A stretch of 64,000 bases of DNA. It comes from Escherichia coli. Lineage in GTDB: Bacteria > Pseudomonadota > Gammaproteobacteria > Enterobacterales > Enterobacteriaceae. Where the stretch lies: assembly GCF_003790525.1 (NCBI RefSeq), contig NZ_CP033635.1. The stretch is one strand, 5' to 3'. Of the stretch, positions 20,449-56,242 are shown one piece after another. Both the position numbers and the translations under genes were made by a program. The notes beneath the pieces were generated by a model that was not told where the DNA came from, ran no database searches, and saw only the letters and a list, made by a program, of their open reading frames with translations. Numbering within the stretch: the first letter of the stretch is position 1; the number at the start of each line of letters is the position of its first letter.

Positions 20449-21765
20449 ATGGCCGTCAATCTTACTGAAACAGCCATCCGAGCATTGAAAGCAAAAAAGA
20501 CATCGTTCTATGTCTGGAGCAACAGCTCTCAACGTGGCACTGGACGACTTGGTGTCAAAGTTCAGCCTTCTGGCAGCAAGATTTTCTATTTCCGCTATTA
20601 CGTGGAAAAAGGGAAAAAAGAAAGATTCATTCAATTGGGTATATGGCCTGAGATGAAACTGGCCACAGCGAATGAACTGACAAAAAAGTATGGTGCCTGG
20701 CTCATTGAAGGAAAGGATCCCCAGGCAGAACTGGAACGACAACAGTTTGCAGAACAGCAGCGGATACAACTCCATCAATCACAGGGCTCATTTGAAGCAT
20801 TGATTCATGGTTATGTTAACAAAATGAAAATTGATAATAAGAGGACATGGCAGGATGTTCTGAAACGCCTTGAAAATGAATGCTATACAGTGATCCCCCG
20901 TGAAACTAAAGCTAAAGATGTGACTTCCGGACAGATTAAACATATCCTGGCCGGGATCATTCAGCGCGGTGCTGTGGTTCACTCTAACCGGATCCGTTCT
21001 TACCTGATGGCTGCATTTAACTATGGACTGAAAGCAGATAACGATCCGATGAACACAAGTGTAGGGATTACTTTTGGGCTGGAGGCAAATCCGGTGTCAG
21101 TGATACCGAAACAGTCATCTGCTGAAAAAGTCGGTGATACCTGGCTGACACTTGAAGAGTTGCGTTTTCTAATGGAACATTTTGCTGAAGCAACCAACGT
21201 TGGATTATTGATGCAACATTTGATCCGATTCTGTATCTATACCGGAGGGCAACGTCCTTTCGAAATGATCGCCAGTCAGTGGTGTGATGTTGATTTTCAA
21301 CAAAAAACGCTGCTGGTGACTGCTGATGTCTCTAAAAATAAACGAGAGCATTTGATACCGTTGACTGAATCAGCATTACAGGAATTATCCTGTGTGCAGG
21401 AGTTAACAAAAGAAAAATCCAGCCCTTACATTTTTCCACTTTCGACTAATGGTAAGCGTCCGGTTCGTACGGACAGTCTGGCTCGCGCTATCATGTATTT
21501 CCGGGCTTTTAATCCTGACTTTAAAATTTTTACAGCACGTGACTTACGTCGGACCTGTAAAACGTTAATGGGAGAAGCTGGGATCAGTAAGGAAATCCGC
21601 GATCGTATTCAAAATCATGCGTTGAACGATGTCAGTTCAAAACATTATGATCGATACGATTATTTGCCAGAAAAACGCAGAGCACTTGAGATCTGGGAGG
21701 ACCGGGTTAATAACTATCAACAGCAAACAGGCAATAATGTTGTCAATCTGTTTGGCAGAAGGTGA
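20449..21765 (+). CDS. P4-type tyrosine integrase
   Basis: 438-aa ORF; C-terminal catalytic region with R...HxxR...Y arrangement (ARDLRRTCKTLM, HALNDVSSKHYDRYDY); directly adjacent to the tRNA fragment. Confidence 0.9.
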   Translation: MAVNLTETAIRALKAKKTSFYVWSNSSQRGTGRLGVKVQPSGSKIFYFRYYVEKGKKERFIQLGIWPEMKLATANELTKKYGAWLIEGKDPQAELERQQFAEQQRIQLHQSQGSFEALIHGYVNKMKIDNKRTWQDVLKRLENECYTVIPRETKAKDVTSGQIKHILAGIIQRGAVVHSNRIRSYLMAAFNYGLKADNDPMNTSVGITFGLEANPVSVIPKQSSAEKVGDTWLTLEELRFLMEHFAEATNVGLLMQHLIRFCIYTGGQRPFEMIASQWCDVDFQQKTLLVTADVSKNKREHLIPLTESALQELSCVQELTKEKSSPYIFPLSTNGKRPVRTDSLARAIMYFRAFNPDFKIFTARDLRRTCKTLMGEAGISKEIRDRIQNHALNDVSSKHYDRYDYLPEKRRALEIWEDRVNNYQQQTGNNVVNLFGRR

Positions 21766-24957: not shown

Positions 24958-25185
24958 ATGTGGAAGCCGTTAAGAGATGAGAACCGTTTATCAATTTTGA
25001 AGATCTATGGATACACCTGTGACAGACTGGTACGAGAAAAGGAACGCCAGAAAATTACGTCTATTTCTCGTTCACAAGCCTGGAAACTGGAACGTGAAGG
25101 AAAATTCCCGCCACGTAAAACTATTGGAAAGAAATCCTGTGGGTGGTTATTAAGTGATCTATTGTGGTGGATTAGTCAGTATTAA
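24958..25185 (+). CDS. alpA: AlpA-family phage regulatory protein / excisionase-like HTH
   Basis: 75-aa ORF; ISRSQAWKLEREGKFPPRKTIGKKSCGWLLSDLLWWI fits the AlpA/Xis-type HTH pattern; preceded by a ~780-bp AT-rich non-coding region. Confidence 0.65.
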   Translation: MWKPLRDENRLSILKIYGYTCDRLVREKERQKITSISRSQAWKLEREGKFPPRKTIGKKSCGWLLSDLLWWISQY

Positions 25186-26215: not shown

Positions 26216-26776
26216 ATGGCGAGTTTTGCATACATAGACTCTGAAAAATGGTCAAAACTTAATCGCTTAAAATCCATGATTCAGAGATATTTTAAAGAAC
26301 CACTATTGCAGTTAACAGGCGAATTGGGTCGCCCGGATTATACTCTGGCAGACAGAAAACGGTTAGTTCGACTCCTGACGCAGGATATGCAAAGGGGTGA
26401 TATTCTGATTACTAAATCGTTAACTTGTTTTGGTAATACGCCGGAAAAAATACAGGAGGTTTTATCTTTAAGTATCAGACAAGGTATTAATATTTGCTTT
26501 TTTACGTCATCAGAGTTGCCGGATGGTGATGATATTCCTGTGGTACTCACCGGGATGATTTTACCTACAGATATTAGAGGAAAAATTCCCGACATCAGTA
26601 TCCGGAAAATTAAAAGAAAACCAGGAAGGAAAGAAGGGAGTATTCATAGTAAAAATATCAGACAGTTGAAATTGCAGGGGTTCAGTCAGTCACAAACAGC
26701 CAGAAAATTAAGCATCAGTTTATCCACTGTAAAAAGACACTGGGATAAAGGTATTGTTGATCTAACTGCAGAGTAA
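26216..26776 (+). CDS. Serine-recombinase (resolvase/invertase)-derived protein with C-terminal HTH; catalytic motifs degenerate (YagL-like)
   Basis: 186-aa ORF; RGDILITKSLTCFGNT aligns with resolvase GDTLVVxKLDRLGRS but lacks the RVS serine motif and DRLGR arginine; C-terminal QSQTARKLSISLSTVKRHW HTH. Confidence 0.5.
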   Translation: MASFAYIDSEKWSKLNRLKSMIQRYFKEPLLQLTGELGRPDYTLADRKRLVRLLTQDMQRGDILITKSLTCFGNTPEKIQEVLSLSIRQGINICFFTSSELPDGDDIPVVLTGMILPTDIRGKIPDISIRKIKRKPGRKEGSIHSKNIRQLKLQGFSQSQTARKLSISLSTVKRHWDKGIVDLTAE

Positions 26777-26970
26777 CATTTTATAGTCCTTGTAGCTATT
26801 GGCAATGGAGTTATAAATACATGTGCGTTGGATAGGTAATATATATTATATCTGTGATGTATAGTATATGTGTAATGATGGATATGATGTACTAATAGAG
26901 CTAATGGTATTCTGATACCAAATAATTAGTTGTGTGTAGATCATAACTCTGTTTAATGTTTTAGAACGTT

Positions 26971-27011
26971 CTAATGTAACTGTGTAACATCATCCTGTTC
27001 TCTAATGTAAC
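26971..27011. repeat. Direct repeats ctaatgtaac (x2, 31 bp apart) upstream of the Gp2-like gene
   Basis: ctaatgtaac at 26971-26980 and 27002-27011, with a related tgtgtaac between them. Confidence 0.35.
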
Positions 27012-27157
27012 AATAGGCAGTAGCGTTTTTCTTAATTGACGCCCAGAGGGTTATATATCCCTCTGGGAACTACTGATACGAATATTAATATCTGCTTCTG
27101 TTGTGTATTGGGTAGGTTAACTATTAGCTTATCTCTGAAAGCAAAAGGAATATTAAC

Positions 27158-27772
27158 ATGATTACGATTGAAACTCTTTACGGTGAATGTCATGAGGCTC
27201 ACGGGTTAAAAATAAGAAACCAGGTGAATAACCTCTTCCAGAAACATCCCAGAATAACGGCAATACGGGTGGATCTCCATTATCCTCCCGTGATTGACAA
27301 CGGGGATACCATTACCTGTTTTCCTAACCTGAGTCCCGGAGAGATATCTCGTTTCCGTAACTCGCTGAATGCGAAAATTAATGCAGATCAACACCGTAAA
27401 AAACAACAAGGCAAACGCACCTACGCAACGTCGGTTTGTATTATCTGGGCGAAAGAATATACGCAGTCCTTTAAATGTCATTATCACGTCTGCCTTTTTT
27501 TTAACAAAGACGCCTATTACCACCTGGGAGACTATGAGCGCTCTGACACCCTGAGAGGGTTAATTACCGGAGCCTGGTACAGTGCCTTAGGGTTAGAACT
27601 GGAAGATCACCAGGGACTAGTTCATTTCCCTGCTAATGGACGTTACATCCTGGATATTAACGATCCTGATTTCCCTGAGCAATATCAGCGCTTATTGGCA
27701 CGTCTGGATTATCTGACGAAGCTCGACACTAAAGCATCAGGCCAGCGTAACTTTGGCTACAGCGGTTTTTGA
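27158..27772 (+). CDS. Inovirus Gp2-like / YagK-YfjJ family protein with HUH motif
   Basis: 204-aa ORF; HYHVCLFF (HUH-like) and conserved HPRITAIRVDLHYP block typical of the YagK/YfjJ prophage family. Confidence 0.5.
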   Translation: MITIETLYGECHEAHGLKIRNQVNNLFQKHPRITAIRVDLHYPPVIDNGDTITCFPNLSPGEISRFRNSLNAKINADQHRKKQQGKRTYATSVCIIWAKEYTQSFKCHYHVCLFFNKDAYYHLGDYERSDTLRGLITGAWYSALGLELEDHQGLVHFPANGRYILDINDPDFPEQYQRLLARLDYLTKLDTKASGQRNFGYSGF

Positions 27773-27799: not shown

Positions 27800-28366
27800 A
27801 TGTATACAGAATCAAACGTTAAGCTTTCCTGTAACGCCCTCTGGCAAAAGTATGTCCTTGCAACTCTGTATCGGGCTGCAGCTACACATCCTAAAATTAA
27901 ATTATTACAATTTAAATTAATACCTTGCCCAGGTATGAACAAGGCAATTCCCTCTCTGATGGCTGATTTTACTGGTGAACTGCATAGACTAATTTCTGAA
28001 TATTTGCAGTGCAAGCGACGTAAAGATAAATCTGTTGAGCCCGCCCCTTTATATTATCTCTGGAGTAGGGAAGCTGTGGCTAACGATACCACTCCTTATC
28101 TTATGGTACTGCTACTTAATAACGATGTCTGGTGTAAGAGTCGTGAGGTGGTGGCTCTCAGAAATCTGATTGAGCAGGCGTGGGGAAAAGTATTGGACGA
28201 AGATAACTCCATTACACATCAGGTTGTGTATCCTGAAGTGCTGTCGTTGGTATTTGATGCAGCTAACACATACAACGCTGAGCCTGGTGTACTGGAACAG
28301 ACGGCCCAGGCTTACATTGAATCGCATGGTGCCATTGAACGTCATCTTGGGTGTAGTGACTTTTAA
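27800..28366 (+). CDS. Paralogue of the upstream Gp2-like protein (HUH motif degenerate)
   Basis: 188-aa ORF; N-terminus HPKIKLLQFKLIPCP parallels HPRITAIRVDLHYPP of the neighbour; the HYHV position reads PYLMV. Confidence 0.4.
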   Translation: MYTESNVKLSCNALWQKYVLATLYRAAATHPKIKLLQFKLIPCPGMNKAIPSLMADFTGELHRLISEYLQCKRRKDKSVEPAPLYYLWSREAVANDTTPYLMVLLLNNDVWCKSREVVALRNLIEQAWGKVLDEDNSITHQVVYPEVLSLVFDAANTYNAEPGVLEQTAQAYIESHGAIERHLGCSDF

Positions 28367-40716: not shown

Positions 40717-41511
40717 TGAGCCGCCCCGGGAATCCTGGAGACTAAACTCCCTGAGAAAGAGGTAAACAGAATGACTAAAAATACTCGTTTTTCCCCCGAA
40801 GTCCGTCAGAGGGCGATTCGTATGGTTCTGGAAAGTCAGGGCGAATATGACTCACAGTGGGCGGCAATTTGTTCCATTGCCCCAAAGATTGGCTGTACAC
40901 CGGAGACTCTGCGTGTCTGGGTGCGCCAGCATGAGCGGGATACCGGAGGCGGTGATGGCGGGCTCACCACCGCTGAACGTCAGCGTCTGAAAGAGCTGGA
41001 ACGTGAAAATCGTGAACTGCGCCGCAGTAACGATATCCTTCGCCAGGCTTCCGCTTATTTTGCGAAGGTGGAGTTCGACCGCCTCTGGAAAAAGTGATGC
41101 CACTGCTGGATAAGCTGCGTAAGCTGTACGGGGTCGGACCGGTATGCAGTGAACTACATATTGCCCCGTCAACGTATTACCACTGTCAGCAACAGCGACA
41201 TCATCCTGATAAACGCAGTGCCCGTGCGCAGCGCGATGACTGGCTGAAGAAAGAGATACTGCGCGTATACGATGGGAATCATCAGGTATACGGTGTGCGT
41301 AAAGTCTGGCGTCAGTTGTTACGGGAAGGAATCAGGGTAGCCAGATGTACAGTGGCGCGCCTCATGGCGGTTATGGGACTTGCCGGTGTTCTCCGGGGTA
41401 AAAAGGTCCGCACTACCGTCAGCCGGAAAGCCGTTGCCGCAGGCGACCGCGTAAACCGTCAGTTTGTGGCAGAACGTCCTGACCAGTTGTGGGTGGCTGA
41501 TTTTACTTACG
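40717..41511 (+). mobile_element. IS3-family element (IS629/IS1203-like) 5' part: left IR, orfA and orfB N-terminal section, ending at the group II intron
   Basis: Left end tgagccgccccgggaatcctggagac; orfA 40771..41097 ([26 protein letters not shown]...), orfB from 41094 reading ...QLWVADFTY up to 41511. Confidence 0.65.
40771..41097 (+). CDS. IS3-family transposase OrfA (HTH/leucine-zipper subunit)
   Basis: 108-aa ORF; conserved IS3-family orfA; 4-bp overlap with the orfB start. Confidence 0.75.
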
Positions 41512-44269
<2,758 letters not shown>

Positions 44270-55870: not shown

Positions 55871-56242
55871 ACAGTCTGCCAGGGGAAATGCCTGATTACA
55901 TTGCGTTAACCAACTGAAAACATGACACAAACACCTCATCCCCCTCCTGTTTCTCTTGCGTGACTGCCTTGCTGTTAATAGAACAAAACGATCAATAAGA
56001 CAGGTGTCGATCGTTGCCATCGATCGTTTGTAGTGGTTAATGGTCTGCGAAAAGGCAGCTGAATCTCTTCATCATGCATAACGGAATTGCACACAACGGA
56101 CTGATACTTCTCTGGCGGATGAGAGAGGGAAAGCATTTATGTCCGGGAAAAACCACTTTATCTGACCATGCTGTTTTGTACCTGCCGGTATCCACTTTTG
56201 TGGGTACCGGCTTTTTTATTCACCCTCTGTAAGGAAAAGCTG

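Follow-up and report, generated by a model that had tools for sequence, protein, structure and literature searches.

Here we report the analysis of a YagL-family gene in a 64,000-nucleotide stretch of Escherichia coli DNA (assembly GCF_003790525.1, contig NZ_CP033635.1), referred to below as the window. Its product, a protein of 186 amino acids, is derived from a resolvase/invertase-type small serine recombinase and no longer has the catalytic residues of these enzymes, a loss that holds for the whole YagL clade and not for this protein alone. The gene is under selection and is a fixed backbone gene of integrative islands of the CP4-6 type. Our preferred reading, to which we give a probability of about 0.6, is that the protein is a pseudo-recombinase that works non-catalytically, as a regulatory or architectural DNA-binding protein of the island backbone.

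The open reading frame (ORF) lies at positions 26216..26776 on the + strand, exactly where an earlier prediction made by eye from the sequence (hereafter the original prediction) had placed it; it has an ATG start, 186 codons and a Shine-Dalgarno sequence (GAGG) 5 nucleotides (nt) 5' of the start. Homology, residue alignment and fold search identify its product as a catalytically degenerate homologue of small serine recombinases. The protein is identical to RefSeq WP_000135718.1, which most genomes label 'hypothetical protein'; several newly annotated ones (newer RefSeq/PGAP) have 'type I phosphoribosyltransferase'. The DNA of the ORF was found in 257 of 5426 complete E. coli genomes (about 5%), chromosomal every time, with an identity of at least 99% over the ORF in 256 of the 257; a truncated variant of 113 amino acids (P0002) is present in some strains.

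Ancestry and fold

The original prediction had recognized a resolvase core block, GDILITKSLTCFGNT, and a C-terminal helix-turn-helix (HTH). The resolvase call could not be taken for granted, because the single 186-amino-acid sequence scored below threshold against the Pfam Resolvase family (PF00239; 13.6 bits against a cut-off of 23.3, E=0.073, residues 45-98). The C-terminus matched HTH_7 with 24.2 bits (cut-off 23.8), so that the predicted HTH stands. When PDB sequences were searched with the single query (phmmer), a hypoxanthine phosphoribosyltransferase (HPRT) came first (E=2.6e-4, residues 46-119), with Tn3 and gamma-delta resolvase at E=0.04-0.1. A HMMER search of 1.84 billion representative proteins returned a small family of relatives of 181-194 amino acids and reached, with the query alone, a canonical recombinase fragment that contains DRLGRD (P0021; E=6e-6). 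A second, profile-based search added members of the YagL clade from Salmonella, Yersinia, Serratia and Providencia. The 186-amino-acid protein groups with 21 further members of this clade and matches YagL of E. coli K-12 (36% identity over 142 amino acids, E=2e-25 in BLASTP; about 70% identity in the HTH); intact family ORFs encode 181-204 amino acids across genera and are 25-35% identical.

The relationship became clear with a clade profile built from ten YagL-clade members and containing no canonical recombinase. Its positions 1-182 aligned with positions 1-175 of gamma-delta resolvase (E=2e-11), Tn3 resolvase followed at E=7e-11, and HPRT fell to E=0.003-0.15. Taken individually, seven of the ten members matched Pfam Resolvase (best E=1.2e-6) and all ten matched HTH_7. 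In the alignment, GDILITKSLTCFGNT of the query corresponds to GDVILVKKLDRLGRD of gamma-delta resolvase and the N-terminal FAYIDSE to FGYARVST; together with the full-length profile match, this confirms the core block named in the original prediction.

An AlphaFold2 (AF2) model was built on an alignment of 37 sequences and had a mean predicted local distance difference test score (pLDDT) of 80. Residues 1-100 (pLDDT 86-96) show the beta-alpha-beta arrangement of a resolvase catalytic domain, and the HTH (residues 145-176) is also modelled with confidence. The E-helix region (residues 101-140) has a pLDDT of 47-63, and its sole helix is five residues long (118-122); in recombinases, the long E-helix at this place, with E118, E124 and R125, supplies the dimer and tetramer interfaces and serves subunit rotation. 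In a Foldseek search of the PDB, the top 25 matches were small serine recombinases only (Tn3 and gamma-delta resolvase, then Sin), ranks 27-46 were held by Gin and large serine integrases, and response regulators ranked lower; there was no phosphoribosyltransferase among the PDB matches of the model.

Active site and retained DNA-reading parts

Residues were compared in an alignment of 22 YagL-clade proteins, 12 proteins of a sister clade, and gamma-delta and Tn3 resolvase, and are numbered here as in gamma-delta resolvase. Mutagenesis of the Tn3 and gamma-delta enzymes has established that cleavage is abolished as soon as one of R8, S10, R68 and R71 is missing. Of the five core catalytic residues, the query keeps none: R8 is replaced by D (retained in 8/22 clade members), S10 by E (2/22), D67 by T (0/22), R68 by C (0/22) and R71 by N (5/22), and every member of the clade keeps at most two of the five. 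The nucleophile context Y-x-R-V-S reads YIDSE in the query, and the DRLGR motif reads TCFGN. The original prediction had stated that the RVS serine context and the DRLGR arginine are missing; the alignment bears this out, revealing no intact serine and arginine mis-aligned by eye, and extends the loss to the whole clade. The replacements vary among subgroups of the YagL clade, which therefore has no conserved alternative active site.

Other positions of the catalytic domain are retained, namely Y6 (Y in the query; 21/22), the acidic residue at D36 (E36 in the query; D or E in 22/22) and D59 (D62 in the query; 22/22). At the E-helix, E124 is I in the query and is kept in 0/22 clade members, and R125 is R in the query and is kept in 1/22. 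Both residues of the Gly-Arg arm, G141 and R142 (G137 and R138 in the query), are invariant in the clade (22/22 each). Mean identity inside the clade is 56% in the HTH part and 28% in the N-terminal domain.

The protein can thus be divided into three parts, all on the + strand. Residues 1-100 (26216..26515) form a catalytic-domain fold of the resolvase alpha/beta type whose active site is lost, as indicated by the AF2 model, Foldseek, the residue comparison and a ratio of nonsynonymous to synonymous substitution rates (dN/dS) of 0.12-0.32. Residues 101-135 (26516..26620) are a remnant of the E-helix and linker, about 5 residues shorter than in recombinases, with prolines and no long helix predicted. 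Residues 136-181 (26621..26758) comprise the Gly-Arg arm and the resolvase-type HTH with the recognition helix SLSTVKRHW, supported by HTH_7 and a dN/dS of 0.07-0.08. The homology to small serine recombinases (gamma-delta and Tn3 resolvase, Hin/Gin, Sin) is collinear over the full length and includes the catalytic fold, the Gly-Arg arm and HTH_7; the query differs from them in that the nucleophile and the arginine triad are gone and the E-helix is eroded.

The sister clade consists of recombinases of about 190 amino acids from Pseudomonas, Marinobacterium, Motilimonas and metagenomes (P0058-P0069). These proteins share with the query the C-terminal arm and the HTH signature LGRP..S...SLSTVKRHW (43-48% identity in that part), and they are likewise located in small islands with a tyrosine integrase. 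Unlike the query, all 12 have the complete set of residues listed above, from Y6 to R142, and a full E-helix; their genes lack YagM and YagK flanks, and the conserved boxes described below are absent.

K-12 YagL resembles the query in its domain order, in the loss of R8, D67 and R68, and in its position between YagM-family and YagK/YfjJ genes, 3' of a P4-type integrase. The two are nevertheless separate paralogues in different islands, that of the query lying beside nfeF. YagL aligns with S10 and R71, whereas the query has none of the five core residues, an E-helix region that is shorter still, and a C-terminal extension of 5 residues.

Selection

The E. coli alleles are at least 99% identical and dN/dS is uninformative among them; for this reason, orthologues of other genera were used. 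Values were obtained by the Nei-Gojobori method for three orthologue pairs outside E. coli. For a Yersinia/Serratia pair, dN/dS was 0.26 over the whole gene, 0.32 in the N-terminal domain and 0.08 in the arm and HTH; the corresponding values were 0.20, 0.17 and 0.07 for two Providencia sequences and 0.10, 0.12 and 0.08 for two Salmonella sequences. With whole-gene values of 0.10-0.26, the YagL-like gene is under selection and is not decaying, and the degenerate catalytic domain is constrained, although less so than the HTH.

Genomic context

The island in the window is inserted beside nfeF. It begins with a P4-type tyrosine integrase that adjoins nfeF (20449..21765, +), followed by two hypothetical genes and an AlpA-family HTH protein (24958..25185, +; Pfam Phage_AlpA, E=2.5e-14), the first gene of a conserved four-gene module. 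The second gene encodes a YagM-family protein (UCP007319; 25248..25994, +), whose N-terminus resembles a ribbon-helix-helix (RHH) and whose C-terminal domain is without a structural match; it is always found directly 5' of the YagL-like gene. Directly 3' of the latter, again in every case, is a gene for a YagK/YfjJ ('inovirus Gp2 family') protein (27158..27772, +), which matches Pfam YagK_YfjJ_C (E=4e-55) and a PHROG of replication initiation proteins (E=7e-5). Nothing on the function of YagK, YfjJ, YagM or UCP007319 was found in the literature searched.

Gene order was compared in 12 loci, comprising the window, CP4-6 of K-12, and ten further loci with divergent family members (three from Providencia, two from Salmonella, one each from Serratia, Yersinia and another NCBI genome assembly, and two from metagenome assemblies). 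The order AlpA, YagM-like, YagL-like, YagK/YfjJ on a single strand was found in 12/12 loci, with AlpA sometimes represented by an HTH_17 protein. A P4-type integrase lies upstream in eight of the ten further loci, and the remaining two end before the integrase position. In islands of this type, a variable gene separates the integrase from AlpA. The equivalent order in CP4-6 is intF, yagN, ykgV, yagM, yagL, yagK. CP4-57 of K-12 has the order intA, yfjH, alpA, yfjI (DUF3987), yfjJ; in that island, a different protein thus takes the place of YagM and YagL. The YagL-like gene is a fixed component of the backbone of CP4-6-type islands.

The genes 3' of the module form a variable cargo, with defence or toxin genes in at least 5 of the 12 loci. 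In the window, the YagK-like ORFs are followed by insertion sequence (IS) elements, a dimethyl sulfoxide (DMSO) reductase cluster, a type I restriction-modification (R-M) system, a GTPase and an Ag43 autotransporter, the R-M system being the defence cargo. Other loci carry a cyclic-oligonucleotide-based antiphage signalling system (CBASS; SMODS and SAVED), an ATPase of the OLD family alongside a UvrD helicase, a TIR protein, a deaminase, or PAAR and LHH toxins with SUKH immunity proteins.

Alignment of the intergenic regions between YagL-like and YagK-like genes of 11 loci revealed two conserved boxes. Box 1 (CTAAyTnCAGAGTAAC; 26762..26777, +) overlaps the stop codon of the gene in the window; owing to this overlap, the window protein ends with DLTAE (5 extra residues) and not with GIIG. 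Box 2, (A)TGTTGGAWAGGTAwTATA, occurs once per locus (26826..26844, +). The distance between the boxes is exactly 58 nt in 11/11 loci, although the intervening sequence varies and identity among the flanking proteins is no higher than 25-35%. Related boxes, AAGAGTAA and TTGATAGGTAATATAT, are found about 46 nt apart 5' of yfjJ in CP4-57 (L015 4426-4490). CP4-57 has no YagL-like gene, and the boxes are therefore assigned to the Gp2-like YagK/YfjJ, for which they might be operator, origin or nick site. Structured RNA was considered and rejected as an explanation of the boxes, as RNAalifold gave no consensus fold on either strand and there was no Rfam match at this place; a sigma-70 promoter was likewise rejected, as the scan showed none on the + strand and, on the - strand, nothing beyond generic AT-rich matches, which were less numerous than in shuffled sequences.

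A perfect palindrome with 9-bp arms, CCCAGAGGG-ttatatat-CCCTCTGGG, lies at 27042..27067, 91 nt 5' of the start of the YagK-like gene. Different inverted repeats occupy the same relative position elsewhere, one of them, ACGGTC...GACCGT, being shared by CP4-6, Serratia and Salmonella. The AT-rich interval between the YagL-like and YagK-like genes of the window also contains an exact 11-nt direct repeat, TCTAATGTAAC, at 26970-26980 and 27001-27011 (31 nt apart). No res-like arrays were found near the YagL-like gene, the TCTAATGTAAC pair and the palindrome being the only notable repeats, and the locus differs from those of small serine recombinases in that no paired sites resembling res or hix were identified.

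Function of the YagL family

The mechanism that we consider most probable is as follows. The 186-amino-acid protein has lost the chemistry of cleavage (the nucleophilic serine, the three arginines that hold the phosphate, and D67), along with the larger part of the E-helix, on which synapsis and subunit rotation depend. It retains its DNA-reading parts, the minor-groove Gly-Arg arm and the HTH. It would then bind nucleic acid sequence-specifically without cutting it; its likely role, together with the adjacent RHH-type YagM-like protein, would be regulatory or architectural, for the AlpA/YagM/YagL/YagK module, with genes or sites of the island as targets. Such a role has parallels among active enzymes, as Tn3 and gamma-delta resolvases repress tnpA and tnpR through binding to res, and their subunits on res sites II and III have an architectural role only. 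The original prediction had suggested a recombinase domesticated as a DNA-binding regulator. Both domains are under purifying selection and synteny is strict in all 12 loci, which supports domestication; the regulatory role is what we infer.

Several points weigh against this explanation. No DNA target of the 186-amino-acid protein was identified, and no site could be tied to it; the conserved boxes were considered as a YagL binding site, but this was dropped because related boxes precede yfjJ in CP4-57, which is without a YagL-like gene. Dimerisation, which resolvases need for tight binding of their sites, becomes uncertain with an eroded E-helix. Canonical recombinases were among the sequences aligned for the AF2 model and may have influenced its fold, and the Foldseek result is not fully independent; the match of the clade profile to resolvase is free of this weakness. 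Finally, the sole biochemistry available for a homologue concerns the binding and chaperoning of RNA and not DNA regulation.

A wider proposal builds on the pseudo-recombinase and is put forward tentatively, with a low probability. The YagM-like RHH protein, the dead recombinase, the Gp2-like YagK, the two boxes and the hairpin upstream of yagK might together form a replication or mobilisation module that drives a widespread family of P4-integrase islands ferrying defence systems (CBASS, Gabija-like, type I R-M, TIR, toxins), in which the pseudo-recombinase would be a site-specific architectural or origin-binding subunit.

The RNA data give rise to the main rival, which we regard as doubtful, namely that the protein is an RNA-binding protein or RNA chaperone whose HTH binds RNA non-specifically and which as a whole remodels RNA, as reported for K-12 YagL. 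Purified YagL binds single-stranded and double-stranded RNA via its C-terminal HTH, which identifies the HTH experimentally as the nucleic-acid-binding domain, and it speeds the refolding of a misfolded Tetrahymena ribozyme in vitro, for which the full-length protein is required (PMC11587861). The identity between query and YagL, both overall and in the HTH, speaks for a transfer of these properties. However, the protein assayed was YagL and not the query, the substrate was heterologous and the affinities were modest (PMC11587861). Activity of this kind is common in vitro among basic proteins that bind DNA. The fixed place of the gene in an island mobility module (12/12 loci) and the invariance of the resolvase-type Gly-Arg arm and HTH favour DNA as the native ligand.

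It is very improbable that the gene is the decaying remnant of a recombinase without present function. The loss of catalytic residues, the location in a cryptic, IS-ridden island and the existence of the 113-amino-acid truncated variant would fit such a remnant, but the ORFs are intact across genera, the low dN/dS values include the N-terminal domain, and position and orientation of the gene are constant in all 12 loci.

The second option of the original prediction, a divergent enzyme that is still active, is very unlikely. The protein has the length and domain order of a small serine recombinase and retains Y6, E36 and D59, and a serine (Ser9 in YIDSE) stands one residue ahead of the S10 position, where it might act as a shifted nucleophile. 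Against this, R8, D67, R68 and R71 are all replaced, and variably so across the clade, and the E-helix is short, contains proline and lacks E124 in 22/22 members.

The annotated identity as a type I phosphoribosyltransferase, for which the first rank of HPRT in the single-sequence PDB search is the argument, is rejected on the combined evidence of the clade profile (which favours resolvase at full length), of the phosphoribosyl pyrophosphate (PRPP) motif (whose acidic pair ED is TK in the query and is unconserved in the clade), of Pfam (no match to Pribosyltran, PF00156, even at E<=10), and of the fold search and the C-terminal resolvase-type HTH, a domain absent from phosphoribosyltransferases. 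HPRT ranked first because GDILITKSLTCFGNT resembles the PRPP loop VLIVEDIIDSGNT, and this local likeness is probably the source of the name.

The resolvase likeness of YagL is already known (EcoCyc, RefSeq), and the query is a new, more degenerate member of the family. YagL is still described as a predicted resolvase in PMC11587861, the text of which does not contain the word 'serine' and does not discuss the residues of the recombinase active site. One paper mentions YagL as part of a predicted LexA regulon and offers no motif that YagL itself would bind. In the literature searched, three points are apparently unstated: that the active site has been lost throughout the clade, that a sister clade has kept it, and that there is an invariant four-gene module with boxes at fixed spacing. 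Nothing was found there on catalytically inactive resolvase homologues as regulators. That a dead enzyme is reused to bind nucleic acid is a well-known pattern, and our findings are incremental and of modest surprise. They correct two labels, 'hypothetical protein' and the unsupported 'type I phosphoribosyltransferase', of a protein that about 5% of complete E. coli genomes encode, and they indicate that no member of the YagL family, YagL included, should be expected to act as a resolvase. If it were known what AlpA, YagM, YagL and YagK do, it would become clear by what means these islands are regulated, excised or copied.

Additional observations

A second, shorter ORF with a YagK/YfjJ domain (27800..28366, +) starts 27 nt past the end of the first and is not preceded by the conserved boxes. 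Rfam matches above the gathering score in the window comprise an ALIL pseudoknot, which is a frameshift signal of the IS3 family (41052-41168), a group II intron domain (43695-43781) and an IS102 RNA (55988-56224); the island is very rich in mobile elements.

The K-12 gene yagL (b0278; L002 5221-5919) is annotated with 232 amino acids and starts about 43 codons before the methionine (MRSFFY...) that aligns with the N-termini of the family. The 43 N-terminal residues of the annotated protein have no counterpart in any family member, and judging from this alignment the true start of YagL may be the internal methionine, which would give a protein of about 189 amino acids.
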